From Bacteroidota bacterium (GTDB lineage Bacteria; Bacteroidota; Bacteroidia; UKL13-3), in contig JBPXJS010000041.1 of assembly GCA_051715425.1 (NCBI GenBank), forward strand, positions 336,360 through 400,359: a stretch of DNA of 64,000 bases, read 5' to 3'. The notes under the pieces were generated by a model, which saw only the letters and a list, made by a program, of their open reading frames with translations, ran no database searches and had not been told where the DNA came from. The first letter of the stretch is position 1. Every line of letters begins with the position of its first letter. Below, one piece after another: positions 1 through 64,000 of this stretch. Position numbers and translations under genes: made by a program.

Positions 1-690
1 ATACTTGCCGGTATGAAGTATGCCACCGGAGATTGCAATGTGGTGATCACAGCAGACCTTCAGGATCCTCCGGAGCTTATGGTAAAAATGTATGAACATT
101 GGGTGCGGGGAATAAAACTTGTTATTGCTAACCGCACAGACCGGGAAGATCCTTTTTTTTCAAAATTATTTGCACTCCAATATCAGAAACTCATCAAGAA
201 ATATGCCCTTAAAAACCTGCCTGAAGGGGGATTTGATTATTGTCTTTTCGATAAACAACTGCGTACCCAGGTTGTGGAAATGAATGAAACCAATACCAAT
301 TCTCTCTACCTTCTCCTGTGGCTCAAATACGATTATGTTTCCATACCGTATACCAGAAAAAAAAGAAGTATCGGAAAATCTTCGTGGACTTTTCAAAAAA
401 AGCTCAAACTCTTTATCGATTCTTTTGTTTCCTTTTCTTACGCCCCTTTAAGATTAATAACTATTATTGGCCTGCTGCTTGGTCTGCTTTCATTTATATA
501 TGCCCTGTATGTTATTTTTGCCAGACTAAGCGGCCTCATTGAAGTTCAGGGATGGACCACCATGATGGTGGTCTTCCTTCTTGTTTCTTCTTTTCAAATG
601 ATGGCATTGGGTATTATGGGAGAATATCTTTGGCGAAATCTGGAATCATCCAGAAAAAGACAGGCTTTTATTGTTGATGAAGTGATATGA
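1..690 (+). CDS. Family 2 glycosyltransferase, C-terminal part (N-terminus lies upstream of the window). Dolichyl-phosphate / undecaprenyl-phosphate sugar transferase-like with C-terminal transmembrane helices.
   Basis: The in-frame ORF runs from base 1. A GT2 DxD-type motif ITADLQDPPE appears near the window start. The tail is hydrophobic (LLLGLLSFIYALYVIFA, MMVVFLLVSSF), as in ArnC/DPM1-type GT2 enzymes. Confidence 0.65.
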   Translation: MLAGMKYATGDCNVVITADLQDPPELMVKMYEHWVRGIKLVIANRTDREDPFFSKLFALQYQKLIKKYALKNLPEGGFDYCLFDKQLRTQVVEMNETNTNSLYLLLWLKYDYVSIPYTRKKRSIGKSSWTFQKKLKLFIDSFVSFSYAPLRLITIIGLLLGLLSFIYALYVIFARLSGLIEVQGWTTMMVVFLLVSSFQMMALGIMGEYLWRNLESSRKRQAFIVDEVI

Positions 691-1193
691 AGAGTGAGCA
701 AAAATGGTATGTTCTTTATACCAATCCAAGAGCCGAAAAAAAAGTTGCTCAGGAACTTATTAAACACCAATATGAGTACTATCTCCCTTTGTTAAAAACA
801 TTAAAACATTGGAGCGACCGGAAAAAATGGGTAGAAGAACCCCTGTTTAAGTCTTACATTTTTGTAAAAACAAACCTGGAATTACACTATTACCACCTGC
901 TCAATATGTATGGTGTAGTAAAATTTATCAGAATTGGCAGTGAAATAGCCACTATCCGTGAAGAACAACTATTGGATATTAAACTGGGCCTGGAACAAAC
1001 AACCGATATTGAGTTAAGTTCAGATAAAATAGTAAATGGTTCAAATGTTGAAATTATTGCCGGCCCTCTTAAAGGCAAAACCGGATTGGTACTGGAAAGA
1101 CGCGGGAATAAATATTTTTCCATTGAAATTGAACAATTAGGCACCTTTATGCTCATTGCAATACCATCTAACTACTTAAAAATCAATGAGTAG
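687..1193 (+). CDS. UpxY-family (NusG-paralog) transcription antiterminator.
   Basis: 168 aa. NGN-like N-terminus (WYVLYTNPRAEKKV) and a C-terminal KOW-like segment (VEIIAGPLKGKTGLV). Typical first gene of Bacteroidota polysaccharide loci. The ATGA start overlaps the upstream stop. Confidence 0.8.
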   Translation: MKSEQKWYVLYTNPRAEKKVAQELIKHQYEYYLPLLKTLKHWSDRKKWVEEPLFKSYIFVKTNLELHYYHLLNMYGVVKFIRIGSEIATIREEQLLDIKLGLEQTTDIELSSDKIVNGSNVEIIAGPLKGKTGLVLERRGNKYFSIEIEQLGTFMLIAIPSNYLKINE

Positions 1194-1305
1194 TAGCTAA
1201 AATGATCAGATCTGGGATACCGCTATAACAGATATTTAAATCCTACTGGTTTTACCCTTATATTTCGAATAATTTATTTGCAAAATTCATAGCGGAGAGC
1301 TATTA

Positions 1306-1326
1306 TTGAGTAATTTTTCTACTCAA
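1306..1326. promoter_or_regulatory. Perfect 7-bp inverted repeat TTGAGTA-N7-TACTCAA in the 171-bp gap upstream of the HTH regulator. Candidate operator or hairpin.
   Basis: Read directly: ttgagta atttttc tactcaa. It is preceded by a Bacteroidota-like TTTG ... TAttaTTG element (about 1280-1310). Confidence 0.3.
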
Positions 1327-1364
1327 TCTTTAACATAGTCATTTGTGACTCACGGGGCGAAGCT

Positions 1365-1928
1365 ATGTTACATCCAGAAATAACCCGGTATTCAGGCATG
1401 CTTGATACACTTATCACATCTAAAACAAGAATAAAGTTGCTGCTTAAGTTTTTCCTTAATGGGAAAACCTCTTCTTATCTGCGCAATCTGGAGAGTGAGT
1501 TTGGTGAAAGTTCGAATGCCATACGCCTGGAGTTGAATAAATTTGAAGAAGCTGGTTTATTGCATACCACACTCGAAGGAAACAAAAAATTATTTAAAGC
1601 CAATACGCAACATCCGTTGTTTAAGGATATACATAATATTTTATTAAAATATACCGGCCTTGATCAGATTCTTGAAAAAATTATTCATAAACTCGGTGAG
1701 GTAGATAAAGTATACCTTGTTGGGGAGTTGGCACATGGGTTAGACAGCCCCATTATTGACCTTATTTTGGTTGGCGATATAAACAAATCCTATCTGATGC
1801 AACTCACAGAAAAGGCAGAGAAAATTGTAAAAAAGAAAATCAGGTATATCATTTATACTGCAAAAGAGGTTTCCGGAAATGAAGCCTCTGTTTTACCTAA
1901 GCATCACTTAATCTTATGGACAAGATAA
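1365..1928 (+). CDS. Winged-helix (ArsR/MarR-like HTH) transcriptional regulator with a C-terminal nucleotidyltransferase-like region. It occupies the position usually held by UpxZ.
   Basis: HTH segment SSYLRNLESEFGESSNAIRLELNKFEEAGLL. The C-terminal VYLVGELAHGLDSPIIDLILVGD resembles a minimal nucleotidyltransferase fold. Confidence 0.45.
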   Translation: MLHPEITRYSGMLDTLITSKTRIKLLLKFFLNGKTSSYLRNLESEFGESSNAIRLELNKFEEAGLLHTTLEGNKKLFKANTQHPLFKDIHNILLKYTGLDQILEKIIHKLGEVDKVYLVGELAHGLDSPIIDLILVGDINKSYLMQLTEKAEKIVKKKIRYIIYTAKEVSGNEASVLPKHHLILWTR

Positions 1929-2938
1929 ATTCTCCATATACCATTGCTGAGATAGGTCAGGCACACGAGGGTAGTCTGGGTATACTTCATTCCTACATTG
2001 ATGCATTGGCTGAAACCGGTGTAAACGCGGTAAAATTCCAAACACATATTGCAGAAGCGGAGAGCAGTGAACATGAGCAATTCAGGGTAAAATTCAGTTA
2101 CGAGGATGCCACTCGTTTCGACTACTGGAAAAGAATGGAGTTTACCCCGGAACAGTGGGCCGGAATAAAACAACATTGTGAAGATAAACATCTCGAATTT
2201 ATTTCATCCCCCTTTTCAATTGCTGCAGTTGAACTTCTGGAGAAATTGAATGTAACCAAATATAAAATCGGTTCAGGTGAAGTTTCCAATCTGCTTATGC
2301 TTGGTGTAATTGCCAAAACCGGGAAAGATATCATGCTTTCATCAGGGATGAGTTCCTACACTGAGCTGGATGCAACAGTAAACTTTATCAAGCCATTTGG
2401 GAATAACCTCTCTGTTTTGCAATGCACCACTTCCTACCCTACTAAACCAGAGCAATGGGGGCTTCAAGTGATTAGCGAGTTAAAGCAAAGGTATCAGATT
2501 CCTGTTGGTTTCTCTGATCATTCAGGTGATATTTTTGCCTGCCTGGCAGCCACCACGCTTGGTGCCGAAATTTTGGAGTTTCATACCGTTTTTGATAAAC
2601 GAATGTTCGGCCCTGATACAAAATCGTCTCTCACTATTGACGAAATAAAAACCCTTGTTTCAGGAATCAAAGCCATTAGCAAATCCATTCACACAAAAAC
2701 CGATAAAAACAATACTGAACCATATACCGGATTAAAAGTGTTGTTTGAAAAGTCACTTGCTGTTAATAAACCTTTAAAGGCCGGACAAACAATTAACGCC
2801 AGTGATCTGGAGTCAAAAAAACCAAAAGGGCACGGAATACCTGCCAATAAATACCAAAGCGTGGTGGGGAAAAAACTAAAACATGATTTAAAACAATGGG
2901 ATTTTCTAACAGAAGCTGATATATCTGATGAACAATAA
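1916..2938 (+). CDS. NeuB-family nonulosonic acid synthase (N-acetylneuraminate or legionaminic acid synthase-like, copy 1) with a C-terminal SAF domain.
   Basis: IAEIGQAHEGSL, VKFQTH, KIGSGE and GFSDHSGD motifs of PEP-dependent NeuB/PseI/LegI aldolases. The C-terminal SAF-like region is KPLKAGQTINASDL. Confidence 0.8.
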   Translation: MDKINSPYTIAEIGQAHEGSLGILHSYIDALAETGVNAVKFQTHIAEAESSEHEQFRVKFSYEDATRFDYWKRMEFTPEQWAGIKQHCEDKHLEFISSPFSIAAVELLEKLNVTKYKIGSGEVSNLLMLGVIAKTGKDIMLSSGMSSYTELDATVNFIKPFGNNLSVLQCTTSYPTKPEQWGLQVISELKQRYQIPVGFSDHSGDIFACLAATTLGAEILEFHTVFDKRMFGPDTKSSLTIDEIKTLVSGIKAISKSIHTKTDKNNTEPYTGLKVLFEKSLAVNKPLKAGQTINASDLESKKPKGHGIPANKYQSVVGKKLKHDLKQWDFLTEADISDEQ

Positions 2939-4088
2939 AAGAAAAGTATGTGTGGTGGTTACAGCAAGGCCAAGCTATAGCCGTATAAAAACCGCATTAA
3001 AAGCTATTCAGGAACACCCGGAGCTTGAATTACAATTGGTAATTGCAGCCTCTGCCCTGCTTGATCGTTATGGCTCTGCGGTAAACTACATTGAACGTGA
3101 TGGTTTTGAGATAGCTGCAAAAGTTTTTAATGTACTCGAAGGGGAGAACCTTACCGCAGCTGCTAAAACAACAGGTATCGGCATACTTGAACTTTCCACG
3201 GTATTTGACAACCTTTCACCTGATATTGTTGTTACAGTAGCCGACCGTTTTGAAACAATGGCCACAGCTATCTCTGCATCTTATATGAATATCCCCCTTG
3301 CGCATGTGCAGGGAGGAGAGGTAACAGGTAATATTGATGAAAAAGTAAGGCACGCCATCACCAAACTTGCCGATCTGCATTTTGTAGCATCGCCACTTGC
3401 AAAAGAAAGAGTAATAAAAATGGGAGAAAACCCGGAAAAAGTATTTCTTACCGGATGCCCGTCAATTGATCTTGCCGAAGAAATTTTACAATCAGGTCAT
3501 ATGGATTTTAATCCATTTGAAAGATACGGGGGAGTGGGAAAAAATGTTGATCTGAAAAATGGATACCTGGTAGTGATGCAGCATCCCGTTACCACCGAGT
3601 ATGATCAGTCAAGAAAACACATCGAAGAAACCCTTGAAGCCATTTACCAGTTGCAACTGCCAACACTCTGGTTTTGGCCTAATGTAGATGCAGGGTCTGA
3701 TGGAACATCAAAAGGGATCAGAACATTCAGGGAGTTTCGCGATGCATCCAATATCCATTTTTTCAAGAATATGGAGCCCCATCATTTCCTTAAACTACTT
3801 AAAGGAAGCCATTGCCTCATCGGTAACTCAAGTGTGGGTATCCGGGAATGCGCTTACCTTGGCGTACCTGTGGTAAACATTGGAAGCAGGCAGGCTGGAA
3901 GAGAACGTGGGCATAATGTGATTGATACGGATTATGAAACCTCCCAGATTAAAGCGGCTATTGAAGAGCAGATAAAACACGGGCATTATAAGCCAGATAA
4001 AATTTACGGTGACGGAACCTCAGGTTTACAGATTGCAAAGCTTCTGGCATCTCAACCATTAACATTCGATAAAAAACTATATTATTGA
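2928..4088 (+). CDS. UDP-N-acetylglucosamine 2-epimerase, NeuC/LegG-like (probably the hydrolysing type).
   Basis: 386 aa. It follows the NeuB-like gene. Epimerase_2 motifs are VVTVADRFETMATAI, HVQGGEVTG, GNSSVGIRE. Confidence 0.8.
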   Translation: MNNKRKVCVVVTARPSYSRIKTALKAIQEHPELELQLVIAASALLDRYGSAVNYIERDGFEIAAKVFNVLEGENLTAAAKTTGIGILELSTVFDNLSPDIVVTVADRFETMATAISASYMNIPLAHVQGGEVTGNIDEKVRHAITKLADLHFVASPLAKERVIKMGENPEKVFLTGCPSIDLAEEILQSGHMDFNPFERYGGVGKNVDLKNGYLVVMQHPVTTEYDQSRKHIEETLEAIYQLQLPTLWFWPNVDAGSDGTSKGIRTFREFRDASNIHFFKNMEPHHFLKLLKGSHCLIGNSSVGIRECAYLGVPVVNIGSRQAGRERGHNVIDTDYETSQIKAAIEEQIKHGHYKPDKIYGDGTSGLQIAKLLASQPLTFDKKLYY

Positions 4089-4089
4089 T

Positions 4090-4836
4090 ATGCTGGAAGT
4101 TTCGGTTAAAGGATTAACATATCACAGGTTTCTGGCAAAAACAGTTGTACCGGAAGATACCCTCCCTCTTAAAAATAAATTCGATTACTCCTTTATCGTA
4201 GCATACGAACACTTTACCGATCCCGATTATCATTGCATAGATAAAAATGCCTGCGTTATTGATCTGAGTATGGGTGCTGAAGCTGCATTTGCAAATTTTA
4301 ATTCAACAAGCAGAAATGAGGTAAGACGCTCGGAAAAAATAAGTGAGCTTACTTTTACAACAGGATATGAAACATTCGGATTTGATACGTTTTTTGAATT
4401 TCACAAAAATTGTGAGCATGACCGTGACTGGTTTCCTGTTCCTCCAGATGAATTAAAAAACAGTCTTCTTTTTTCGGCTTCCTTCAATGGAATGTTGATA
4501 GCAGGAATGAGTTGTTACACACATGAAAATTTTATCCGTGTAGGACGAATTTTTTCAAATAAACGTTCAAAAAAATCCGAAGTACTTACCAATCTCGTAT
4601 ATGGATGTGCCTCCAAAAGGATTGTTTATGAAATCTGTAAATATGGTGCAGCTAACGGATTTTCCCAACTCGATCTTGGAGGGGTTGACCTTAATGATCC
4701 GGCAAAATCAGGCATTTCACAATTTAAGCTTTCCCTTGGATCAAAGGTTATACCGGTAAAACTGGCAAGGTGGTCAAACGATCATTTTAAAACAAATGAA
4801 CACGTAATCAGAGATAATGGATGGGATCTTACCTAA
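4090..4836 (+). CDS. FemAB-family-like (GNAT-fold) acyl or aminoacyl transferase, hypothetical.
   Basis: C-terminal GISQFKLSLGSK resembles the FemAB-family G-x-x-FK-x-x-FG end motif. No other recognisable domain. Confidence 0.35.
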   Translation: MLEVSVKGLTYHRFLAKTVVPEDTLPLKNKFDYSFIVAYEHFTDPDYHCIDKNACVIDLSMGAEAAFANFNSTSRNEVRRSEKISELTFTTGYETFGFDTFFEFHKNCEHDRDWFPVPPDELKNSLLFSASFNGMLIAGMSCYTHENFIRVGRIFSNKRSKKSEVLTNLVYGCASKRIVYEICKYGAANGFSQLDLGGVDLNDPAKSGISQFKLSLGSKVIPVKLARWSNDHFKTNEHVIRDNGWDLT

Positions 4837-4846
4837 TTCAAAAAAC

Positions 4847-5860
4847 ATGGTAAAAAAATTGTACCTGCTGGGTGGAGGAGATTTTGTGTGGGAATTGCTT
4901 ACTTGGGCCACCAATGAAGGAATTAAAACAACTGCCATTACAAACCAAGCCCAGGCCCAAAAACAAATTAGCGCAACAGGTTTGTCCTTTCAGGATAGCC
5001 TGAACCAGCAACATATTCCTGCAGTGTTTACAGATCATGCTGAAGAAATAAAACGGGATGATTCTTATACTGCAGAAGAGTGTCTTTACATTTCATACGG
5101 AGCTCCCTGGATTTTAACCAAAGACATACTGACAAATACTTTCCATGGACGCCTTCTGAATATACACGGAACCAGATTACCTAAAGACCGGGGAGGAAAC
5201 ATTTTTACCTGGCAGATTCTATCAGGTTTAAGAACAGGAATGTGCCTTATACATCAAATGACTGAGCAAATCGATCAGGGTCCGGTTATTGCTTGGGACG
5301 AATTCATTTATCCGGCATCCTGCAGAATCCCGGCCGACTACATTTCATACTACGAAAGCAGGAATTTATCATTCCTTAAAGAATTTATTAAGAAGGAAGA
5401 GTTCTCTCTGGCTCCTACATTTGCTCAACCGGAATATCTGTCTACCTACTGGCCCAGGGTACTGGCAAATGTGCACGGATGGATAAACTGGGAACTGGAA
5501 GCAACGGATACAGAAAAATTTATTTGCGCATTTGATAAGCCATATGGTGGAGCCAGGTGCCGCTGGAATAACCAGGTGGTGATTATAAGGGATACCTACA
5601 GTCAAACCTCAGATGGGAAAACGCATCCGTTTCAACATGGACTCGTTTACAGAAATAATGGGAAATGGCTAAATGTATGCACAAAAGGGGGTGAACTCCT
5701 TATTTGTGATATAAGGGACGAGAAAGGGAATGATTTGCTTTCAAAAATAAAACCTGGAGACAGGCTTTATACACTTCCAGAAGATATAATCTCAACCTTC
5801 CAGCGTGTGGTAAAACAAAAAGATGGGCTTGTTACAAAAAAAATTGATCATCACCGATGA
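4847..5860 (+). CDS. Formyltransferase-domain protein (Fmt/ArnA-N-like, long form with a C-terminal extension). Putative sugar N-formyltransferase.
   Basis: LLNIHGTRLPKDRGGNIFTWQILSG and IHQMTEQIDQGPVIAWDE match the HxSLLPxxRG / DxG core of formyl transferases. Start set at MVKKLYLLGGG (the track ORF starts at 4817). Confidence 0.6.
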   Translation: MVKKLYLLGGGDFVWELLTWATNEGIKTTAITNQAQAQKQISATGLSFQDSLNQQHIPAVFTDHAEEIKRDDSYTAEECLYISYGAPWILTKDILTNTFHGRLLNIHGTRLPKDRGGNIFTWQILSGLRTGMCLIHQMTEQIDQGPVIAWDEFIYPASCRIPADYISYYESRNLSFLKEFIKKEEFSLAPTFAQPEYLSTYWPRVLANVHGWINWELEATDTEKFICAFDKPYGGARCRWNNQVVIIRDTYSQTSDGKTHPFQHGLVYRNNGKWLNVCTKGGELLICDIRDEKGNDLLSKIKPGDRLYTLPEDIISTFQRVVKQKDGLVTKKIDHHR

Positions 5861-6786
5861 AACTATTGGCCGTTAATTTTCATTATTACCGCAACGATGT
5901 ATATCATTCAGGAATTTATCCGGTAAGTCATGCCGCATTTGCACACCAAATAGAGGTACTTTCAAAGCATTATACTTTTGTTAGCCAATCTGAAATTAAC
6001 TTATGGATTGCCAACGATCATTATCCGGAAGGGAATTATTGTGTAATTACTTTTGATGATGGGTTAAAGGAGCAAATGAATGCCTTTTCCTGGTTGAAAC
6101 AAAATGGCATTCCTGCTATATTTTATGTGGTAACCCAACCTCTGCTTGAAGAAAAAGTGTTGCCGGTAAATAAGCTTCATTACATACGAACCCGCCTCAC
6201 CGATTCTGAACTGATTTCACTTATTGAAAATGAATATCCTGAAAAAGTAAAACATATTGATACCCATGCCGCAGAACAACAATACAGGTACGATAATGAA
6301 GAAGGCAGAAAAATCAAGTACTTGTTGAACTTCGGATTGGAAGAACATGAAAAAACGCTTATTCTGAATCAGTGTTTTCAGAATCTGGTTGATGATGAGG
6401 GAACTTTTGCCAGACAATTATACATGAACAAAGAAGACCTTATTGAATTGGCTAAAGAAGACATGCTCGGAGCACATGGTCACCAACATTTGCCCCTTGC
6501 ACAGGTAAAATACGAAACTGCTCACCATGATATCTTAACTTCCATAACCCTTATAGAAAACATGACCAATTTACCTGTTACGTCTTTCGCATACCCATAT
6601 GGAAGCAAAGTGGCAGTTAATGAATCTTTGCTCTCTATTTTTTCCGAGACAAATGTAAAATTTGCATTTACGATGTGGAGAGGTATGAATATATCCACAT
6701 CAGAAATTAATCCGATGCTGCTAAAAAGAATTGACACGAATGATGCACCTGGAGGTAAAGACAACTCTGACGAGTTTTTACCTTAA
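5857..6786 (+). CDS. Polysaccharide deacetylase (NodB homology domain, CE4 family).
   Basis: VITFDDGLKEQ NodB motif 1. AHGHQH and FAYPYGS motifs follow downstream. Confidence 0.65.
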   Translation: MKLLAVNFHYYRNDVYHSGIYPVSHAAFAHQIEVLSKHYTFVSQSEINLWIANDHYPEGNYCVITFDDGLKEQMNAFSWLKQNGIPAIFYVVTQPLLEEKVLPVNKLHYIRTRLTDSELISLIENEYPEKVKHIDTHAAEQQYRYDNEEGRKIKYLLNFGLEEHEKTLILNQCFQNLVDDEGTFARQLYMNKEDLIELAKEDMLGAHGHQHLPLAQVKYETAHHDILTSITLIENMTNLPVTSFAYPYGSKVAVNESLLSIFSETNVKFAFTMWRGMNISTSEINPMLLKRIDTNDAPGGKDNSDEFLP

Positions 6787-6792
6787 TCAACC

Positions 6793-7728
6793 ATGAGAAT
6801 ACTTATTGCCGAGACAAAGGACTTTAGTCGCGAAACTGTTATACTGCTGAATAAAACATTCGAAGTGGATGTGAGGGATATTGAGTCTGAAGAGGTTCCT
6901 TTAGTACTTGATCAATATGATGTATTCTGGTTCAGGTTAAAATATAAACTTACCTCAGATATTATCCTTAACAGCAATAAATGTAAGTATATCATTTGTC
7001 CGGTTACCGGGCTTGACCATATAGATATCGAGGCCTGCAAAATAAAAGGAATCAACATTATCAGCCTTAAGGGAGAAACCGCATTTCTCCGGGAGGTGCG
7101 TGCTACTGCTGAGCATACCATTGGGTTAACACTTTCTCTGCTCAGGCAAATTCCGGCCGCTGTACGTTCCGTTCAAAATGGAATCTGGAACAGGGATTTG
7201 TTTAAAGGAAATGAGATTTATGGTAAAAAGGTAGGAATACTTGGTGTTGGCAGATTGGGCAAAATCACCGCATCGTACTTTAAGTGTTTTGGTGCAGAGG
7301 TCTACGGTTATGATATCAGCCCTGTTGATGCATCAACCTGTACCCCGGTTTCTTCGATGGATGAGTTATTTGCAAGTACAGACATTATAAGCATTCATGT
7401 GAATCTGAATGACGCTACTCACCATTTGGTGACGAAAAAACAACTGGCATTAATGAAGCCAGGTAGCTTTCTTATTAATACATCAAGGGGAAGTATTATT
7501 AAAAGTGAAGATCTGATCTGGGCACTGGAAGAGCAAAAACTGGCAGGTGCAGCCATTGATGTTATTGAAAACGAATTTAACCATAAAACCGATCTCCTTA
7601 CTCAATATGCCGCAGCGAACAAAAATCTGATCATCACCCCCCATATTGGTGGTAATACCTGGGAATCATTCGCGAAAACGGAGTTGTTTGTTGCAAACAA
7701 ACTACTTAAGCTTACAGATAACAATTAA
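6793..7728 (+). CDS. NAD-dependent D-isomer-specific 2-hydroxyacid dehydrogenase (glycerate / phosphoglycerate dehydrogenase-like).
   Basis: GILGVGRLGKITA Rossmann motif. NTSRGSIIKSEDLIWALEEQKLAGAAIDV and IITPHIGGNT are catalytic-domain motifs. Confidence 0.8.
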   Translation: MRILIAETKDFSRETVILLNKTFEVDVRDIESEEVPLVLDQYDVFWFRLKYKLTSDIILNSNKCKYIICPVTGLDHIDIEACKIKGINIISLKGETAFLREVRATAEHTIGLTLSLLRQIPAAVRSVQNGIWNRDLFKGNEIYGKKVGILGVGRLGKITASYFKCFGAEVYGYDISPVDASTCTPVSSMDELFASTDIISIHVNLNDATHHLVTKKQLALMKPGSFLINTSRGSIIKSEDLIWALEEQKLAGAAIDVIENEFNHKTDLLTQYAAANKNLIITPHIGGNTWESFAKTELFVANKLLKLTDNN

Positions 7729-7735
7729 TCCAATA

Positions 7736-8758: not shown

Positions 8759-8760
8759 GA

Positions 8761-9723: not shown

Positions 9724-9732
9724 TATTTAATT

Positions 9733-11870: not shown

Positions 11871-11874
11871 CCAT

Positions 11875-12885: not shown

Positions 12886-12889
12886 AATA

Positions 12890-19238: not shown

Positions 19239-19241
19239 AAT

Positions 19242-19859: not shown

Positions 19860-19861
19860 TC

Positions 19862-22291: not shown

Positions 22292-22319
22292 CGTTTATCA
22301 AATACGTTCTAAACTAACA

Positions 22320-25093: not shown

Positions 25094-25103
25094 TTCTAAA
25101 CCC

Positions 25104-25631: not shown

Positions 25632-25644
25632 TTCAGGAAATACC

Positions 25645-36524: not shown

Positions 36525-36741
36525 AGTAAAGGAAATAATGGCTGCTGTTTTCGAAACAGAGCCATCATTAATTAATGAAAACAGCAGTCCCGATAATATC
36601 GAGAACTGGGATTCTATCAGACATATGAATCTGATTGTTGCCCTTGAGGAGGAATTCGGAATCCAGTTTAATGATGACCAGATTGCCGACATGACCAACT
36701 TTAAGCTGGTAATTGCTACCCTAAAAGAATTTAGTTTATAG
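36514..36741 (+). CDS. Acyl carrier protein (phosphopantetheine attachment site).
   Basis: 75 aa, acidic. WDSIRHMNLIVALEEEFGIQF has the Ser (DSI) attachment motif and helix II. Confidence 0.75.
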   Translation: MENKVKEIMAAVFETEPSLINENSSPDNIENWDSIRHMNLIVALEEEFGIQFNDDQIADMTNFKLVIATLKEFSL

Positions 36742-36745
36742 GTTT

Positions 36746-41209: not shown

Positions 41210-41210
41210 T

Positions 41211-56425: not shown

Positions 56426-57630
56426 ATACACTCAAACTAATAAAGAATCACACAGGAAAACTTGTTCCCCTTGCGCTTAGCACATTAAATCCGGCTAATT
56501 TTACGGTGCTTGTAAAAAATGCCTTTAGTCTATTATCAAGCCAGCAATGGGAAAACTACATTCTCAAAAACAACAAAAAACACACAGAACTGGCAAAGAA
56601 GTCACTCAACTGGCTAAAACATTCTCAGGATGTTATTGGATCAGGAGGCGTGGGCTGTTATGAATTTTACAGGTGGACCAAAGGTTATCCTGAAGTAACC
56701 GGATACATTATACCAACCTTTTGGGATGCATACCATTTATTTGGTGACGAAGAATATAAACAAAGAGCCATTAGAATGGCTGATTGGGAATTGGGTTTAC
56801 AAAAACCGGAAGGCGGATGGGAAGGCTTTTATGAAGGTGACGGCCAACCTCCCGTAGTTTTTAATTCCGGTCAGGTGCTGAGGGGACTTATCAGAACATA
56901 CAAAGAAACCAACGAACAAAAATACCTTGATGCGGCCATTAAAGGAGCTGATTGGATAGTTGGAACTCAGGATGCAGACGGTAGCTGGACCAGCACCAAC
57001 TTTAAACAAATGAAACGGGTGTACGATACTTACGTTACTGCACCCATTGCAGAATTGTATCAGATTACCAAAAACGAAAAGTATAAAGAAAGCTGCATCA
57101 GAAACTGCGATTTTGTATTGAAACACCAACATGCCAATGGCTGGTTTGAGCTTTGTGATAATACGTTGCTGAACAATGAAGCTCCTGTTACCCATACCTT
57201 ATCGTATACCACAGATGGATTAATTGAAACCGGACAACGGCTAGGAATTGATAAATATATTCAGGCCGGTAAACTTGCAGCAGAAGCTATGATGCATAAA
57301 GCTGAAATTTTACCGGTAATGCCAGCACGACTTGATAAGGACTGGAAAAAAAGAGCCAATTATGTTTGTAATACAGGTAACGCACAATTAGGTATTATCC
57401 TCATGAGACTGTATGAAATAACAGGAGAAGCCCGCTACATGAACACTGCTCTAAAACTGGCCGATTTCCTTGCCTATATCCAGCAACTGAATAGTGTGGG
57501 AGCACACCGCACCGGAGGAATAACAGGATCTTATCCGATATGGGGAATGTATTGCCCGCTGAAATACCCATCGTGGGCAAGTAAATATTATACCGATCTT
57601 TTATTCTATATCCATAAGCATGCTAAATAA
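56422..57630 (+). CDS. Alpha/alpha-toroid repeat protein with terpenoid-cyclase / prenyltransferase-like QW repeats. Function unknown.
   Basis: Repeats LQKPEGGWEG, TQDADGSWTS and HQHANGWFEL spaced about 45-55 aa apart. Confidence 0.4.
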   Translation: MNTLKLIKNHTGKLVPLALSTLNPANFTVLVKNAFSLLSSQQWENYILKNNKKHTELAKKSLNWLKHSQDVIGSGGVGCYEFYRWTKGYPEVTGYIIPTFWDAYHLFGDEEYKQRAIRMADWELGLQKPEGGWEGFYEGDGQPPVVFNSGQVLRGLIRTYKETNEQKYLDAAIKGADWIVGTQDADGSWTSTNFKQMKRVYDTYVTAPIAELYQITKNEKYKESCIRNCDFVLKHQHANGWFELCDNTLLNNEAPVTHTLSYTTDGLIETGQRLGIDKYIQAGKLAAEAMMHKAEILPVMPARLDKDWKKRANYVCNTGNAQLGIILMRLYEITGEARYMNTALKLADFLAYIQQLNSVGAHRTGGITGSYPIWGMYCPLKYPSWASKYYTDLLFYIHKHAK

Positions 57631-58372
57631 AGACACGCTTTCAGAGCAAATCGCATTTATCTCCATTAATCCTTCGGGTAAATTTGTAAAATCGGCTCAG
57701 CTGGGATTTGACAAGGTTGGTTTGCGGCCTAAGTTTATGATTTATGTAAACCCCGGAGGGAGGATAAAAAAAGAATTTAAAAAATATCGCCTTGGCATAT
57801 TCACTCAGTTTTTACTTCCAAAATTCAAACAACACTTTGGCAATAAACAAAGCTTTTCCAACGAGGTCATAAACATTCCCATTCCGGTTATCCATAAAGT
57901 AAGTTCATTAAACAGTGACGAAACAGTAAAGTTTATTACCGACAACAAGATTAAATACCTGGTGAATTGTGGTGCCGGAATTTTCAGAAAAAAAATCACT
58001 TCCATTCAAGGCATTCAAATCATTAATGCCCATGCCGGGAAACTTCCTCACTACAGAAATATGAATGTGGTGGAATGGGCACTGCTGAATGGAGAACCTG
58101 TTATCGGAACCATTCATCTGATTGATAGCGGAATTGATACCGGACCAATTCTTTATGAAGAAGAATTAAAGATTAGTGGTGCTGATCACCTGATACCTGC
58201 AAGGGAAATGGCTTTTGATCAGGTCATACAACTGGCAGGTAAAACCGTGCTTGCACTTGCCGAAGAAACATTAAACATCAAACCACAGCCTAAAGAGGGT
58301 AAAAAATGGTATACCATGCATCCCTTCTTTAAGGAAAAACTGAACAGAAAACTGGCCTCTGCGGGCAGGTAA
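57620..58372 (+). CDS. Formyltransferase-domain protein (short form).
   Basis: INAHAGKLPHYRNMNVVEWALLNG and IHLIDSGIDTGPILYEE. Confidence 0.65.
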   Translation: MLNKDTLSEQIAFISINPSGKFVKSAQLGFDKVGLRPKFMIYVNPGGRIKKEFKKYRLGIFTQFLLPKFKQHFGNKQSFSNEVINIPIPVIHKVSSLNSDETVKFITDNKIKYLVNCGAGIFRKKITSIQGIQIINAHAGKLPHYRNMNVVEWALLNGEPVIGTIHLIDSGIDTGPILYEEELKISGADHLIPAREMAFDQVIQLAGKTVLALAEETLNIKPQPKEGKKWYTMHPFFKEKLNRKLASAGR

Positions 58373-60448: not shown

Positions 60449-61201
60449 TTGATCTACTTCACCCACGATATAGACTGGCTTTCTCCTTCTCATCCGTATT
60501 CCATTATCAAGTCTTTAACTCATGCAGATAAATGGATAGGATTAGGGCAAATATCAGATAAAAATCTTTTTCTTAGGGAGATTGAAGCGTTGCTTTCAAC
60601 TGATATCACACTCCAGATAAATCCGGTATGGTTAATAGGTGCGCCAAAATCAGGAAGTTTTACACGTTACGGGTTACGTTACCATATTGGTGATACAAAT
60701 TACATGAAATGCTTATCCCTTCTTTTGGAGGCAGGTGTAGAAACGGGGCTTCATAGTATCAACTCGGAATCTTTTACTGAACAGGTAACCACATTGAGTT
60801 CCCTGCTGCAAAAACCAGTAAAATATCACAGAAGTCACTTTCTGAAATTTAGCACAAAAGAACTTACAGAGAATCTCATTAAGCACCACGTGAAGGTTGA
60901 TTTCAGTTTTGGTCACGCCAGAAATATTGCACTTCCGGGGTTACCTGTTTCTTCGGATCATGGTATTCGCTTTATTCCCACCGTCCTCTTCGACAATATA
61001 TTTTTCTTTGAACAACCTGCTGTTATTTTTAATATGCTCAGAAAGGTTCTTGCAGAATCAGCAAAACTAAAGCAGGATATTTCCATTCTCTTCCATCCGG
61101 AAAATTTCGTTTTAAAGCCCGCCCTGCACCAACATTATGCTGAAGTGATTCGCATTTGTAAAAATGAAGGTGATATCTTTAACCCTAAAGTTGAGGCATA
61201 A
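60449..61201 (+). CDS. Hypothetical protein (possible deacetylase or TIM-barrel-like fold).
   Basis: 250 aa. No confident motif. Coding potential is supported by length and codon usage consistent with its neighbours. Confidence 0.3.
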   Translation: MIYFTHDIDWLSPSHPYSIIKSLTHADKWIGLGQISDKNLFLREIEALLSTDITLQINPVWLIGAPKSGSFTRYGLRYHIGDTNYMKCLSLLLEAGVETGLHSINSESFTEQVTTLSSLLQKPVKYHRSHFLKFSTKELTENLIKHHVKVDFSFGHARNIALPGLPVSSDHGIRFIPTVLFDNIFFFEQPAVIFNMLRKVLAESAKLKQDISILFHPENFVLKPALHQHYAEVIRICKNEGDIFNPKVEA

Positions 61202-61387
61202 CCGGATTTCACCGCACCCCTAACTTTTATTTGCAGCCTTTCCCATTAGCTAAGGGCATCTCTTTTGGCTTTCTTTTAATGACTGTTGTTCTGCAGTCGC
61301 ATCCCCACCATCTTATTTATTTAGCGATTTTCATCTGAAAATCCTTATTTCGCAGGTATTGTTTATACTTAATACTTAAAGATACCT

Positions 61388-62599
61388 ATGCTGCCATTTT
61401 CTCCTCCGCACATCGACCAAAAAATTATTGATGAAGTAATCGATACCCTAAAATCCGGTTGGATTACTACAGGCCCAAAAACAAAAAAGTTCGAAAAAGA
61501 GCTTACTGCATATGCAGGAAACAAAGCCACCCTTTGCTTAAATTCAGCCACAGCCGGGTTAGAAATTATGCTGCGCTGGTTTGGTGTTCAGGAGGGGGAT
61601 GAGGTGATTTTGCCGGCATATACATACAGTGCAACAGCTAATGTGATTGTGCATTGCGGAGCCAAGCCTGTTTTTGTCGATATCGGAGATGACTTTAATA
61701 TTTCTGTGAATCAGATAGCCCAGGCAGTTACAGAGCGTACAAAAGTAATCATGCCGGTTGATTTCGGTGGTTATCCTTGTGATTACAATGGTATCAACGC
61801 ATTGGTAAATAAGCCTGAGATAAAAAGCCTGTTTAAACCAGCAACAAAAGAACAGGAACAATTGGGGAGAATAATGGTACTTTCAGATGCTGCGCATTCC
61901 ATAGGAGGATTTTACAACAGTAAACGTACCGGTTCATTAACAGATGTATCTGTTTTTTCTTTTCATGCCGTAAAAAACCTTACCACTGCAGAAGGCGGAG
62001 CCATTGCCCTCAATCTGCCACCTCCATTTGATAATGAAGAAATATACAAATACCTGTGTATAAAAACGCTTCATGGCCAGAACAAAGATGCCCTGGCCAA
62101 AAGTATACCTGGTAACTGGCGCTACGATATTATTGAAGCCGGTTATAAGATGAATATGACAGATATTATGGCCTCTATAGGCCTGGTTGAACTGGAGCGG
62201 TACGACAGGGAAATCCTTCCGGAAAGGAAGCAGATTTTTGAACAGTATACAGAAACATTTAAGCAATATAGCTGGGCTATCATTCCTGAGTATGCCAATG
62301 ATGTAGCCATATCATCCTACCACCTGTACCCGCTAAGAATTAAAGGGGCAACTGAGAAACAAAGGGATGCAGTTATTGCTAAGATATTTGAAAAGCAGGT
62401 TTCGGTTAATGTTCATTTTATACCCGTTCCTATGATGAGTTTTTATGTGAACAGGGGTTATGATATAACCAACTACCCTAAAACCTATAATATGTATTGT
62501 AATGAGATTTCTTTACCTGTTTATGTTGGATTAACACCTGATAAGGTAAAACAGGTAACTGATGCTGTAATTCAATCCATTCAGGAAGTAATGGGATAA
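61388..62599 (+). CDS. DegT/DnrJ/EryC1-family PLP aminotransferase, PglE/WbpE-like (UDP-4-keto-sugar aminotransferase).
   Basis: FSPPHIDQKIIDEV and FSFHAVKNLTTAEGGAI (PLP Lys). Confidence 0.8.
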   Translation: MLPFSPPHIDQKIIDEVIDTLKSGWITTGPKTKKFEKELTAYAGNKATLCLNSATAGLEIMLRWFGVQEGDEVILPAYTYSATANVIVHCGAKPVFVDIGDDFNISVNQIAQAVTERTKVIMPVDFGGYPCDYNGINALVNKPEIKSLFKPATKEQEQLGRIMVLSDAAHSIGGFYNSKRTGSLTDVSVFSFHAVKNLTTAEGGAIALNLPPPFDNEEIYKYLCIKTLHGQNKDALAKSIPGNWRYDIIEAGYKMNMTDIMASIGLVELERYDREILPERKQIFEQYTETFKQYSWAIIPEYANDVAISSYHLYPLRIKGATEKQRDAVIAKIFEKQVSVNVHFIPVPMMSFYVNRGYDITNYPKTYNMYCNEISLPVYVGLTPDKVKQVTDAVIQSIQEVMG

Positions 62600-62644
62600 G
62601 GATGTTTTGAAAGATGATGGCAGGATTGTAAACTTGCAATCACT

Positions 62645-63232
62645 TTGAAACGCCTTTTTGATATTCTATTCAGCCTCATTGGCATACTACTCCTTTCACC
62701 GGTTTTTCTGTTGTTATGGCTGCTTATTAGAATGGAATCCAAAGGGCCTGCCGTTTTTACCCAAATGCGCGTTGGACTTAACAACAGCAACTTTACCCTT
62801 TATAAGTTCCGCAGCATGTATTCAGATGCCGAAAAAAGGGGACAACTTACGGTAGGCATGCGTGACCCAAGGATTACCAAAGTTGGTTATTACCTGAGAC
62901 GGTTTAAACTCGATGAATTACCCCAATTATTTAATGTACTTAATGGCAGTATGAGTTTTGTAGGGCCCAGGCCCGAAGTAAGGCGCTATGTGGATTATTA
63001 CACGCATGAACAATTAAAAGTGCTTTCCGTAAGGCCGGGAATTACAGATTTTGCATCCCTGAAATATTATAAGGAAAATGAATTACTGGGTAAAGCCAGC
63101 GACCCTGAAAAGGAGTACATTCAGGTAATTATGCCTGAAAAACTGGCTCTTAACCTGGAGTATATTAAGAAAAACTCTTTACTGAAAGATATCGTAATTA
63201 TAGTACAAACCATTATCAAAATAATAACCTGA
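62645..63232 (+). CDS. Small (PglC/WecA-unrelated monotopic) phosphoglycosyl transferase of the bacterial sugar transferase family. It initiates the repeat unit on undecaprenyl phosphate.
   Basis: MKRLFDILFSLIGILLLSP, YKFRSM and DELPQLFNVLNGSMSFVGPRP are PglC-family motifs. 195 aa. Confidence 0.85.
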   Translation: MKRLFDILFSLIGILLLSPVFLLLWLLIRMESKGPAVFTQMRVGLNNSNFTLYKFRSMYSDAEKRGQLTVGMRDPRITKVGYYLRRFKLDELPQLFNVLNGSMSFVGPRPEVRRYVDYYTHEQLKVLSVRPGITDFASLKYYKENELLGKASDPEKEYIQVIMPEKLALNLEYIKKNSLLKDIVIIVQTIIKIIT

Positions 63233-63292
63233 TAATAAATAGTTTGGATTTGTATATAATAGTTTCTTTATATTCGTAAAGTTAAAGATAAA

Positions 63293-64000
63293 ATGAGCTT
63301 ACTCTACTCCTTATTCCCCAAAACCGGCAATGCACCGCGGTGGCTGATCTTCTCAATTGACATATTTATTTGTGTTTTCTCTTTTATTTCAGCAACACTC
63401 CTTCGGTTTAATTTCTTTATTGAGGATGCTTTTAACCCGGAATATTTCTATACTTTACCCCTTGTTCTGGCTATCAGAATCCTGTTTATCCTTTATTTCC
63501 GGATTTATGCAGGCATTATTCGCCATACCAGCGTGCAGGATGCCATCCGGGTGTTTTATACCATTACTTTCAGCACCATTGTTATCAGTATCATCAATAT
63601 TATTTACACCAAAATTAACCTGGATACCAAGGCACTTATTCCTGTATCTATTATTATTATTGATTATATAGGTACCACCTTGCTAATGAATTCTTTCAGG
63701 GTTGCGGCCAAGGTGATGTATATGCAGATTAACCGGCCCGATGAATCCAATATTACCAATTTTGCTGTTTTTGGTGCCGGAGAGGCCGGTATTATTGCCA
63801 AAAGAAAACTGGAACAAAATGGCAGCCGGGATATTAAGGTGGTAGCCTTTTTTGATGATGACCAGAAGAAATACAAAAATTATGTTGATGGTGTAACCAT
63901 TTACCATGGCGGAAGAGACCTGGAAACCGTCATTAAAAAACTCAATATAAAAGAAGTGGTTATTTCGCCTCAGGATATTTCTAAATCAAGAAAGCAGGAA
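63293..64000 (+). CDS. N-terminal part of a PglF/CapD/WbpM-like membrane-anchored UDP-GlcNAc 4,6-dehydratase (open to the window end, and absent from the ORF track because there is no in-window stop).
   Basis: ATG at 63293. 236 codons with no stop. Four N-terminal TM helices, then FAVFGAGEAGIIAKRK Rossmann and VAFFDDD. Confidence 0.7.
   Translation, partial: MSLLYSLFPKTGNAPRWLIFSIDIFICVFSFISATLLRFNFFIEDAFNPEYFYTLPLVLAIRILFILYFRIYAGIIRHTSVQDAIRVFYTITFSTIVISIINIIYTKINLDTKALIPVSIIIIDYIGTTLLMNSFRVAAKVMYMQINRPDESNITNFAVFGAGEAGIIAKRKLEQNGSRDIKVVAFFDDDQKKYKNYVDGVTIYHGGRDLETVIKKLNIKEVVISPQDISKSRKQE

Follow-up and report, generated by a model that had tools for sequence, protein, structure and literature searches.

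Like the locus described here, the L. pneumophila Sg6/12 O-antigen cluster carries reductase, SpsF-like and aminotransferase genes, but it has a single NeuB (PMC3694923), whereas the present locus has three NeuB-family genes. Genetics in B. subtilis indicates that SpsF-type enzymes act as CMP-nonulosonate synthetases (PMC7439481), and in the Moritella viscosa Pse cluster, which lacks a cytidylyltransferase, an SpsF-type enzyme has been proposed as a stand-in for the missing NeuA homologue (PMC7371886). A role has also been described for the BFO_1060/Tanf_01245 family of T. forsythia (PMC5420450).

Our locus comes from an uncultured Bacteroidota bacterium, and it exceeds the window (the whole stretch of DNA analysed, 64,000 nt) at both ends. 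An earlier note had described one co-directional Wzx/Wzy glycan locus of ~63 kb at 687-64000. The single locus stands: a flippase (Wzx), a polymerase (Wzy) and a Bac_transf initiating transferase each occur once. Its extent does not, because it reaches ~72 kb. Wza and Wzc, which the note suggested looking for nearby, directly adjoin the window upstream together with genes for UDP-sugar dehydrogenase, epimerase and GT2, and the 3' boundary is the end of the PglF-like gene, ~1.3 kb beyond the window. The + strand carries all ~60 genes, all of them intact, with 48 of 60 gene junctions at ≤15 bp and only three polytopic membrane proteins. An ORF is present for every gene that the note had named, including its seven glycosyltransferases and the PglF/E/C set at the 3' end:

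687-1193, + strand: UpxY-family (NusG-like) transcription antiterminator, heading the biosynthetic block (NF033644, 139.3 bits vs cutoff 100)
1365-1928, + strand: small conserved ORF that heads loci of this kind (175-187 aa)
1916-2938, + strand: NeuB1, canonical NeuB-family synthase (NeuB TIGR03569, 291.5 bits; PseI, 220.6 bits; both under cutoff)
2928-4088, + strand: NeuC-type hydrolysing UDP-GlcNAc 2-epimerase (TIGR03568, 390 bits vs cutoff 235.9)
4090-9723, + strand: tailoring block, flanked by NeuC and the cytidylyltransferase (formyltransferase-like gene, polysaccharide deacetylase, D-2-hydroxyacid dehydrogenase, two Gfo/Idh/MocA oxidoreductases, one more ORF)
9733-10428, + strand: NeuA/PseF-type CMP-nonulosonate synthetase (PseF TIGR03584, 138 bits, under the cutoff of 205.7)
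10425-11870, + strand: Wzx flippase (Polysacc_synt, 68.4 bits; 11 hydrophobic segments)
11875-12885, + strand: PseB (TIGR03589, 506.3 bits vs cutoff 407.75)
12863-14044, + strand: PseC (TIGR03588, 467.1 bits vs cutoff 423.5)
14088-14951, + strand: aldo/keto reductase of an accessory cassette (Aldo_ket_red; KidO-like, 75.6 bits)
14954-15934, + strand: NeuB2, divergent NeuB-family enzyme (NeuB 183.6 and PseI 135.8 bits, both far under cutoff)
15931-16668, + strand: SpsF-type cytidylyltransferase, obligate neighbour of NeuB2 (Pfam CTP_transf_3, 61.6 bits)
16668-18017, + strand: class-III aminotransferase, glutamate-1-semialdehyde-aminomutase-like (PRK06209, 532.8 bits vs cutoff 486)
18036-20647, + strand: WbuX, HisH-like and WbuZ (HisF-like) N-acetyl-sugar amidotransferase set, forming acetamidino groups (TIGR03573 342.9 bits, above cutoff; HisH 227; WbuZ 272.6)
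20655-21668, + strand: PseG, UDP-sugar hydrolase (TIGR03590, 163.7 bits vs cutoff 153.55)
21662-23318, + strand: short formyltransferase-like protein and GNAT (Acetyltransf_9) protein
23325-24383, + strand: PseI, pseudaminic acid synthase (TIGR03586, 480.8 bits vs cutoff 340.25)
24380-27962, + strand: PIG-L deacetylase, GNAT, formyltransferase-C-domain protein, DUF4910/M28-like protein
27976-35109, + strand: acyl-decoration genes (MBOAT, MaoC-SDR fusion, FkbH, one more ORF) and one candidate transferase
30568-32157, + strand: Capsule_synth-like candidate ulosonic-acid transferase
35112-36524, + strand: candidate nonulosonic-acid transferase, remote relative of T. forsythia BFO_1060/Tanf_01245 (NF046086 66.8 bits, under the cutoff of 200; TIGR04396 50.4 bits)
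36746-60264, + strand: repeat-unit assembly and decoration block, with the glycosyltransferases and Wzy below, an AsnB-like amidotransferase, NodU-like carbamoyltransferase, CapK/PaaK-like ligase, deacetylase, acetyltransferases, two more formyltransferase-like genes, a kinase-like gene, a HAD gene and a GINT1_N protein
39123, 44685, 47045, 51633, 52671, 53904 and 58397, + strand: seven GT2/GT4 glycosyltransferases
45820-47091, + strand: Wzy polymerase
60449-64000, + strand: 3' initiation set, opening with one ORF without an assigned name
61388-62599, + strand: DegT/PglE-like aminotransferase of the initiation set
62645-63232, + strand: PglC-like phosphoglycosyltransferase (Bac_transf) of the initiation set
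from ~63290 past the window end, + strand: PglF/CapD-like dehydratase (657 aa when complete in the contig)

The three synthases share the NeuB-plus-SAF domain architecture. The earlier note held that its reading would fail if two of them were recent duplicates with degenerate active sites. Pairwise identity is 24-29% and the metal-binding and catalytic residues (E25, K53, Q55, K129, H215, E234, H236, D247) are kept in all three, so the genes are intact and different, neither recent duplicates nor pseudogenes. The gene at 23325-24383 is a textbook PseI, grouped with PseB, PseC and PseG: against the solved pseudaminic acid synthase 8h2c it scores 342 bits and is identical at 20/20 active-site positions. 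With all four Pse enzymes above their equivalog cutoffs, a separate NeuC-NeuB1 route and two cytidylyltransferases, the note's proposal of more than one CMP-nonulosonic-acid route is borne out.

The closest solved relative of NeuB1 is N. meningitidis NeuB, with which it shares 17/20 active-site positions. NeuB1 orthologues (67-73% identity) occur elsewhere in bare NeuB-NeuC-CTP_transf_3 triads, and this context narrows the legionaminic/neuraminic-type assignment of the note: the product is probably neuraminic-type (from a ManNAc-type substrate) rather than legionaminic-type. The assignment stays tentative because NeuB1 scores below the NeuB equivalog cutoff (399.65) and has Thr at position 184, where Asn or Tyr (Neu), Tyr (Leg) and Ser (Pse) have been reported (PMC7371886). 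A legionaminic route could draw on the PglF/PglE set at the 3' end. The tailoring block recurs in locus L093, minus both Gfo genes, and the L087 triad is accompanied by a 2-Hacid_dh gene and a deacetylase.

The best solved relatives of the 9733-10428 product are CMP-Neu5Ac synthetases. Its identity to the cytidylyltransferases that accompany NeuB1 orthologues in the L087 and L090 triads is only 32%. It might serve the Pse branch instead. Close homologues of the 15931-16668 product are named SpsF by JGI.

NeuB2 differs from canonical NeuB by the signature D110, H131, T133, D134, G182, F183, Q184, E186 and A213, despite which its metal ligands are retained. The replacements fall at positions surrounding PEP (110, 131, 182, 184), plus S213, and not just around the sugar tail, so that the PEP-side pocket is remodelled. 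Its clade is monophyletic (67 sequences), and we surveyed 65 bacterial and archaeal loci that contain it, 37 of them with full flanks (±10 kb). An SpsF-type gene lies directly downstream of NeuB2 in 55/65, and in three more (L021, L024, L065) the ORF holding NeuB2 is unusually long and matches SpsF as well, an apparent fusion of the two. Among the full-flank loci, 35/37 contain a canonical NeuB, and 32/37 contain one but no NeuA-type cytidylyltransferase within the flanks (a PseF encoded elsewhere in those genomes is possible); the class-III aminotransferase (solved relatives: GSA aminomutases and sugar C-6' aminotransferases) is found in 29/37 and the reductase in 19/37. Within a locus, this module thus normally pairs NeuB2 with a canonical NeuB, usually a PseI-like one. 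The earlier note considered a locus for several nonulosonic acids unusual, but two NeuB paralogues are the usual condition of this module in a Pse-type cluster, and three NeuB genes occur in 6/37 loci and likewise in two close relatives.

The reductase, NeuB2, SpsF and aminotransferase genes form a mobile four-gene cassette that moves as a block and accompanies canonical NeuB genes in many phyla. Here it lies between PseC and WbuX, and in GCA_943372105.1 it follows PseB-C-G-H-I. Identity to that genome varies between 97-98% and 47-74% for neighbouring genes, the pattern of a recombination mosaic. The order NeuB1 block then Wzx-PseB-PseC is found in two other genomes.

We consider it somewhat more probable than otherwise that two CMP-nonulosonic acids enter one Wzx/Wzy polymer, with NeuB2 tied to the Pse branch and having no free-standing pathway. 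Because two of the three synthases are part of a single module that is widespread and uncharacterised, two acidic nine-carbon sugars, not three, are most likely; two acids within one polymer are well supported, and a third is possible. The locus, with the window as its core, would be a Wzx/Wzy-dependent capsule or exopolysaccharide locus, feeding both activated acids into a heavily decorated repeat unit. In one branch, NeuC would hydrolyse and epimerise a UDP-HexNAc, NeuB1 would join the product to PEP, the enzymes encoded between NeuC and the cytidylyltransferase (deacetylase, formyltransferase-like enzyme, dehydrogenases) would tailor it, and the NeuA-type enzyme would activate what is probably a neuraminic-type sugar. 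In the other, PseB, PseC, a GNAT, PseG and PseI would make pseudaminic acid, which the WbuX/HisH/HisF set and acyl-tailoring genes would turn into a derivative that is acetamidino-substituted or otherwise N-acylated. The SpsF-type enzyme most likely serves this branch as its CMP-transferase. It would also activate what NeuB2 most likely makes together with the reductase and aminotransferase, a modified ulosonic acid of the Pse family or a precursor. The sequence shows the gene identities, the active-site conservation, the synteny and the co-occurrence; the substrates, the match of each cytidylyltransferase to a synthase and the arrival of both acids in a single polymer are inferred from these.

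NeuB2 may well make a separate third acid, since every catalytic residue is kept. The idea that the third synthase, which the earlier note linked to a possible third acid, signals an independent one is not borne out by the conserved NeuB2 clade, whose members in other genomes are almost always adjacent to SpsF and near a canonical NeuB, usually with one cytidylyltransferase. We regard as unlikely a polymer with three independent acids, in which NeuB1 would make a neuraminic-/legionaminic-type acid, PseI pseudaminic acid and NeuB2 a third with its own SpsF-type enzyme. All three synthases have the metal ligands and catalytic Lys/Glu that this would take, but cytidylyltransferases number just two. 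NeuB2 and SpsF do form a synthase/cytidylyltransferase pair, their apparent fusion suggests consecutive steps, and they sit beside Neu-type genes without PseB/PseC in L015 and L016; however, one SpsF-type enzyme is common to NeuB2 and the canonical NeuB in 32 of the 37 comparable loci, so either it is promiscuous or both synthases supply one product line. In favour, unconventional transferase candidates number up to three (30568, 35112, 43228); against, the residues replaced in NeuB2 surround PEP, so it may not be an ordinary nonulosonate synthase.

Less probable still is a polymer with one acid, a pseudaminic derivative, with NeuB1/NeuC serving a protein O-glycan or LPS or being silent mosaic cargo. 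NeuB1/NeuC come directly after the UpxY antiterminator in the same tight gene string as the sole Wzx, their block precedes Wzx-PseB-PseC in all three genomes, and every gene is intact; these points weigh against it, even though the locus has a mosaic structure and Bacteroidota protein O-glycans can bear nonulosonic acids (PMC5378307, PMC5420450). Improbable, too, and the most so, are two or more adjacent independent loci, i.e., an island that supplies nonulosonic acids (687-36524) next to an ordinary capsule locus starting at 36746. The gaps of 221 bp at 36524-36746 and 184-186 bp near 60.3 and 61.2 kb, and a + strand terminator-like hairpin at 61248-61270, would fit this. However, the sole flippase is in the first half while the sole polymerase and initiating transferase are in the second, so neither half is self-sufficient; gene direction is uniform throughout, and no + strand terminator-like site was found in the gap at 36.5 kb.

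The four proteins of 24380-27962 probably carry out N-acyl tailoring in the Pse branch. The GNAT among them, the PseH candidate, scores 39.7 bits vs a cutoff of 93.1, and L006 holds the last three genes in identical order at 71-82% identity. Both ulosonic-acid transferase candidates (30568 and 35112) match their families weakly. The small ORF at 1365-1928 has no match in Pfam or NCBIfam profiles; its homologues directly adjoin NeuB1 orthologues, upstream, in L082, L090, L093 and L094, and further homologues are found in L018 and L035.

The DNA holds a single co-directional polysaccharide locus, in which all of the ~60 ORFs are on the + strand, 48/60 gene junctions in the window are <=15 bp, and G+C is ~0.38. 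All genes named in the earlier note were found where it had placed them, including Wzx (10425-11870), Wzy (45820-47091), seven GT2/GT4 glycosyltransferases and, at the 3' end, a PglF/E/C-like set (a DegT/PglE-like aminotransferase, a PglC-like phosphoglycosyltransferase and a PglF/CapD-like dehydratase). Two genes near the ends of the window matter for the type and extent of the locus:

687-1193, + strand: UpxY-family antiterminator (139 bits against a cutoff of 100)
from ~63290, continuing beyond the window end, + strand: PglF/CapD-like dehydratase, 657 aa

The UpxY antiterminator points to a Bacteroidota host. We read the flanks from the Logan assembly of SRR31089860, which contains the same contig. 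On the 5' side of UpxY (L084 3408-10004) are Wza, Wzc, a UDP-sugar dehydrogenase, an epimerase and a GT2, the 3' end of which opens the window, and two PTR2 transporters are also upstream. The proposed search for adjacent export genes was therefore positive, with both Wza and Wzc just upstream of the window. The PglF-like gene is the last of the locus and is followed by a cytochrome c gene (L086 11906-15340), so the whole locus spans ~72 kb, export genes included. Only three polytopic membrane proteins are encoded in the window: Wzx, an MBOAT protein and Wzy. Because the sole flippase is in the 5' half, while the sole polymerase and the sole initiating transferase are in the 3' half, this is one functional locus and not two. 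With UpxY at its head, Wzx, Wzy, an initiating phosphoglycosyltransferase and glycosyltransferases in one orientation, it is a real and unusually large case of a nonulosonic acid capsule locus of the UpxY-regulated Wzx/Wzy type known from Bacteroidota.

Transcription units internal to the locus are possible. Larger intergenic gaps occur at 36.5, 60.3 and 61.2 kb. Of the + strand terminator-like hairpins, just one falls within a sizeable gap between genes: it is at 61248-61270 (9 pairs with a T-rich tail), 5' of the DegT-like gene and 3' of the ORF at 60449-61201. The 3' initiation genes may form a separate transcription unit. A scan for sigma-70 promoters, a model which does not cover Bacteroidota promoters, gave fewer sites than in shuffled sequences. 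The ORF at 1365-1928 occupies the spot 3' of UpxY where an UpxZ trans-inhibitor would stand. It belongs to a conserved set of 175-187 aa proteins which match no known family and head related loci, where they stand immediately behind UpxY or immediately in front of NeuB1 orthologues. Homologues are also present in L093 and L094 (loci from other genomes, as are the other L-numbers below), where there is no UpxY upstream within the fetched flank. We rejected this ORF as a NeuB1-specific partner, since its homologues head the NeuB1-less loci L018 and L035.

The locus has three NeuB-family synthases, which we call NeuB1 (1916-2938), NeuB2 (14954-15934) and PseI (23325-24383). The earlier note had said that its reading would be refuted if two of them clustered tightly as recent duplicates with degenerate active sites. 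Recent duplication and pseudogenes are both ruled out: pairwise identity among the three is only 24-29%, and the catalytic residues are intact. We compared 20 active-site positions mapped onto Neisseria meningitidis NeuB (NmNeuB), whose residue numbers are used throughout. At 20/20 positions, PseI has the same residues as 8h2c, a pseudaminic acid synthase of solved structure, and it scores 480.8 bits with TIGR03586, over the equivalog cutoff of 340.25. Its signature, ASFE / CTSY, has Phe preceding the catalytic E134 and Ser at 184, as in Pse-type synthases (PMC7371886). NeuB1 agrees with NmNeuB at 17/20 positions and carries a GSGE motif, i.e., the Neu/Leg-type Gly before E134, with catalytic and metal residues present. 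Its NCBIfam scores are both under the equivalog cutoffs (NeuB, TIGR03569, 291.5 vs 399.65; PseI 220.6). NeuB2 is the divergent member, with scores far under both cutoffs (NeuB 183.6 bits, PseI 135.8), and retains E25, K53, Q55, K129, H215, E234, H236, D247 and R314.

NeuB1 is followed by an epimerase gene:

2928-4088, + strand: NeuC, directly 3' of NeuB1 (390 bits, above cutoff)

Close homologues of NeuB1 (67-72% identity) are very numerous in environmental Bacteroidota, and PGAP labels them merely 'N-acetylneuraminate synthase family protein'. The earlier note had left this branch as legionaminic/neuraminic-type. Orthologues of NeuB1 and NeuC occur on three unrelated contigs (L087, L090 and L094) as bare NeuB-NeuC-CTP_transf_3 triads, with 67-73% identity to the window's genes in L087 and L090. 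No sugar aminotransferase is near the triads of L087 and L090, and L087 has one epimerase/dehydratase-family gene ~8 kb downstream; in L094, a DegT gene ~7 kb downstream of the triad is apparently part of a separate sugar pathway. Such triads, free of dehydratase and aminotransferase, favour a ManNAc-derived, neuraminic-type product for NeuB1 over a legionaminic-type one. Two features keep this call tentative: residue 184 is Thr, which matches no published class (Neu has Asn or Tyr, Leg has Tyr; PMC7371886), and the PglF/PglE-like pair at the 3' end could be the source of a bacillosamine-type precursor. Among solved structures in the PDB, none is annotated as LegI. Between NeuC and the NeuA-type cytidylyltransferase are six genes: an ORF without an assigned family, a formyltransferase-like gene, a polysaccharide deacetylase, a D-2-hydroxyacid dehydrogenase and two Gfo/Idh/MocA oxidoreductases. 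They presumably encode tailoring enzymes (de-N-acetylation, re-acylation, oxidation-reduction), and the same block minus the Gfo pair is found in GCA_900175145.1.

The Pse branch includes, besides PseI:

11875-12885, + strand: PseB (above equivalog cutoff)
12863-14044, + strand: PseC (above equivalog cutoff)
18036-19859, + strand: WbuX / HisH-like pair (above cutoffs)
19862-20647, + strand: WbuZ/HisF-like gene (WbuZ 272.6 bits, just under the cutoff of 299.7)
20655-21668, + strand: PseG (above equivalog cutoff)

For PseH, there is a GNAT candidate alone (39.7 bits vs 93.1). Nothing in the locus passes the PseF cutoff, with 138 vs 205.7 bits for the NeuA-type gene and no NCBIfam match for the SpsF-type one. 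Both cytidylyltransferases are CTP_transf_3 proteins. The NeuA-type gene (9733-10428) resembles PseF, and its best solved relatives are CMP-Neu5Ac synthetases. It is just 32% identical to the cytidylyltransferases of the simple NeuB1 triads, so its substrate may differ from theirs. The SpsF-type gene (15931-16668) matches PF02348 at 61.6 bits, over 22.6, and is assigned via its homologues (55-65% identity), which JGI names 'spore coat polysaccharide biosynthesis protein SpsF' (COG1861). In Bacillus subtilis, SpsF-type enzymes behave genetically as CMP-nonulosonate synthetases, i.e., an spsF mutant makes legionaminic acid but does not transfer it (PMC7439481). In the Pse cluster of Moritella viscosa, an SpsF-like/aldo-keto-reductase fusion has been proposed to stand in for the absent NeuA homologue (PMC7371886).

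NeuB2 lies in a cassette of four genes: an aldo/keto reductase (14088-14951), NeuB2, the SpsF-type cytidylyltransferase and a class-III aminotransferase (16668-18017), which, among proteins of solved structure, is most closely related to glutamate-semialdehyde aminomutases and sugar C-6' aminotransferases. We aligned 32 NeuB2 homologues and scanned one genome per species (GTDB representatives, which do not include the window's own genome), giving 80 loci with <=10 kb of flank on each side. When the window's proteins were mapped onto these loci, the order PseB-PseC-(reductase)-NeuB2-SpsF-aminotransferase-(PseG)-PseI recurred in Bacteroidota, Bdellovibrionota, Planctomycetota, Nitrospirota, Proteobacteria, Chloroflexota and Actinomycetota, as well as in Priestia megaterium and in methanogenic and other archaea. 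The SpsF-type gene is directly 3' of NeuB2 in 55 of the 65 loci with a NeuB2-clade gene, and in 3 more NeuB2 is part of an unusually long ORF. In L021 8422, L024 4160 and, in Priestia megaterium, L065 3665, a single ORF matches both NeuB2 and SpsF; these apparent fusions come from three unrelated lineages, which supports consecutive steps. Among the 37 loci with full flanks, a canonical NeuB is present in 35, the class-III aminotransferase in 29, PseC in 26, PseB in 25 and the reductase in 19. A canonical NeuB without any NeuA-type cytidylyltransferase is found in 32/37, and three or more NeuB-family genes in 6/37. GCA_943372105.1, whose 5' genes are 95-98% identical to the window's, also has three NeuB genes; its order is PseB-PseC-PseG-GNAT-PseI-GNAT, then reductase-NeuB2-SpsF-aminotransferase. 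The four-gene cassette moves as a block.

In a neighbour-joining tree, the NeuB2 clade comprises 67 sequences. The NeuB TIM-barrel and SAF domain are on record for NeuB2 (PF03102, PF08666), and E25, K53, Q55, K129, H215, E234, H236 and D247 are kept in 67/67 members. Enzymes of the NeuB family form domain-swapped dimers. The pocket differs from that of canonical synthases: G182 and Q184 are found in 67/67 members (canonical: Cys182 in 85/85, 184 mostly S/T), F/Y183 replaces T/V, acidic D/E110 replaces S/T, and S213 is lost. S/T110, C182 and S213 are each present in 100% of the 85 canonical sequences, whereas the window's NeuB2 has D110, G182, Q184 and A213 and thus departs from the canonical set around PEP. 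Positions 110, 131, 182 and 184 are listed as surrounding PEP (PMC7371886).

Both the gene content and the synteny, which is conserved in three genomes, lend good support to two nonulosonic acids. The earlier note's suggestion of a third acid, and of rarity, is only partly supported: a conserved module, whose normal state is a pair of NeuB paralogues, accounts for the third synthase. In the simplest reading, the SpsF-type enzyme would activate the Pse branch, while NeuB2 would act with the reductase and the class-III aminotransferase to provide a modified Pse-family acid or a precursor of one. It is possible instead that NeuB2 makes a separate third acid: it has a cytidylyltransferase immediately downstream, and against this stands its regular pairing with a canonical NeuB. 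A reaction that does not use PEP is also possible. Our bolder proposal, which we hold only tentatively and think rather unlikely, is that NeuB2 represents an uncharacterised subfamily, widespread in bacteria and archaea, which together with SpsF, the reductase and the aminotransferase makes an undescribed CMP-activated ulosonic acid (an extra-aminated Pse-family acid is one candidate, by analogy with Kdo8N) or uses a donor other than PEP. If so, many 'Pse' clusters in nature would encode two different acids.

Nonulosonic acids (sialic, legionaminic and pseudaminic) shape surface recognition by hosts, phages and predators, and the NeuB gene by itself is the usual basis for predicting their type. 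The present locus indicates that a large environmental Bacteroidota capsule cluster can join Neu-type and Pse-type routes, and it exposes a conserved four-gene cassette alongside canonical synthases in many phyla. If the cassette leads to a new sugar acid, NeuB counting or three-class assignment is incomplete; if it is a mere cytidylyltransferase with a variant synthase, NeuB counts overestimate the number of acids. The NeuB2 clade itself is the most interesting remainder. In the literature searched, there was no functional study of the clade and no description of the cassette's product, and the cassette genes appear solely in gene lists (Legionella pneumophila Sg6/12, M. viscosa); papers on the flagellar islands of Geobacillus and Clostridium mention neither the reductase nor the aminotransferase.

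Multiple NeuB paralogues are already known (e.g., Campylobacter jejuni), as are the accessory genes from published gene lists. The C. jejuni flagellar glycosylation locus has NeuB paralogues for Neu, Leg and Pse in one organism and, like the window, combines >1 nonulosonic acid pathway with N-acyl tailoring genes (e.g., acetamidino). Its target is flagellin via Maf-type transferases, unlike the window's Wzx/Wzy polymer, and we know of no C. jejuni NeuB of the NeuB2 (G182/Q184) type and of no reductase-SpsF-class-III aminotransferase cassette there. Three NeuB pathways are described for the species (PMC7371886). The O-antigen cluster of L. pneumophila serogroup 6/12 has a gene list nearly equal to that of window 4817-32157: PseG, a GSA-aminomutase-like aminotransferase, an SpsF-like 'acylneuraminate cytidylyltransferase', HisF/HisH, a WbuX-like gene, an aldo/keto reductase, DegT (PseC), CapD (PseB), NeuB, a 'capsule polysaccharide biosynthesis protein', an aminopeptidase-like gene and two dehydrogenases (PMC3694923). 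It differs in being a gammaproteobacterial O-antigen with a chemically undefined product, and in listing one NeuB, with neither a NeuB2 paralogue nor NeuC (PMC3694923).

M. viscosa shares a Pse-type cluster without a NeuA/PseF homologue, and PseAc2 was detected there by mass spectrometry; it differs in having a single synthase, with NeuB2 absent and no class-III aminotransferase reported (PMC7371886). The reductase and cytidylyltransferase fused in that species are separate genes flanking NeuB2 in the window. Tannerella forsythia is, like the window's host, a member of the Bacteroidota with acetamidino- and acyl-modified Pse (Pse5Am7Gra and Leg loci), but each of its strains has a single pathway, and the sugar is added to a protein O-glycan (PMC5378307, PMC5420450). 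In the B. subtilis spsC-G/spsM legionaminic acid pathway, the SpsE synthase also adjoins an SpsF-type cytidylyltransferase (PMC7439481), but the SpsE pocket is canonical (ASYE / CVAY) rather than NeuB2-type and the operon has one synthase.

Two genes are candidates for transferring these acids:

30568-32157, + strand: candidate ulosonic-acid transferase, Capsule_synth (KpsS/KpsC-like) segment, weak match
35112-36524, + strand: candidate ulosonic-acid transferase, BFO_1060 family (66.8 bits against a cutoff of 200)

The BFO_1060 family includes genetically proven T. forsythia transferases of Pse and Leg derivatives, and the gene at 35112-36524 is a distant relative of these dedicated enzymes (Tanf_01245 / TFUB4_00887 / BFO_1060; PMC5420450); only its C-terminal 160 residues align, so this is resemblance and not membership. 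Two candidates fit two donor sugars, both by weak matches.

The polymer is predicted from gene content to be heavily decorated. Decoration genes include MBOAT, a MaoC-SDR fusion, FkbH, an AsnB-like amidotransferase, a NodU-like carbamoyltransferase, a CapK/PaaK-like ligase, several acetyltransferases, a kinase-like gene and a HAD gene. MBOAT, an unmatched ORF, the MaoC-dehydratase/SDR fusion and FkbH (HAD-IIIC) are grouped at 27976-35109, a group whose product may be a substituent of the glyceroyl or hydroxyacyl type; no gene for a separate acyl carrier protein was seen with it. Homologues of FkbH and MaoC-SDR adjoin NeuB2 cassettes in L005, L011, L023, L035 and L056. There are five formyltransferase-like paralogues (4817-6786, 21662-22291, 25594-26676, 48222-49825 and 57620-58372), two of them directly beside polysaccharide deacetylase genes, and the partial GT2 at the window start (13-690) resembles ArnC/PgfS. 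The formyltransferase/deacetylase layout recalls the formylate-then-deformylate logic of ArnA/ArnD, which by analogy would yield free amino groups.

Compared with GCA_943372105.1 (L082/L091), window 687-14044 is a fine-scale mosaic: UpxY, NeuB1, NeuC and PseB are 95-98% identical, the intervening genes from the formyltransferase-like gene to the second Gfo gene only 66-74%, and NeuA and Wzx 84-88%. PseI, NeuB2 and SpsF are 47-62% identical and differently ordered. This patchy identity points to repeated recombination within the locus. The closest syntenic relative of the Pse block is L006 (Bacteroidia MAG SW_8), which has a second, divergent trio just upstream (canonical NeuB, NeuB2-like, SpsF-like; 452-3932) and thus four NeuB-family genes within 20 kb. 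A DUF4910/DUF2172/M28 peptidase-like protein (26676-27962) within the window's Pse tailoring block is 82% identical in L006, and with the 'aminopeptidase' of the L. pneumophila cluster it makes a recurrent Pse-cluster partner. The gene at 43228-44688 (486 aa) matches GINT1_N at 142.8 bits, the N-terminal domain of eukaryotic glucosamine inositolphosphorylceramide transferase 1, which is unexpected in a bacterial capsule locus. At 40346-42287, among glycosyltransferases, an APH-like kinase-fold protein sits beside a HAD-type phosphatase-like protein, a pair that suggests a phosphorylated substituent or precursor.
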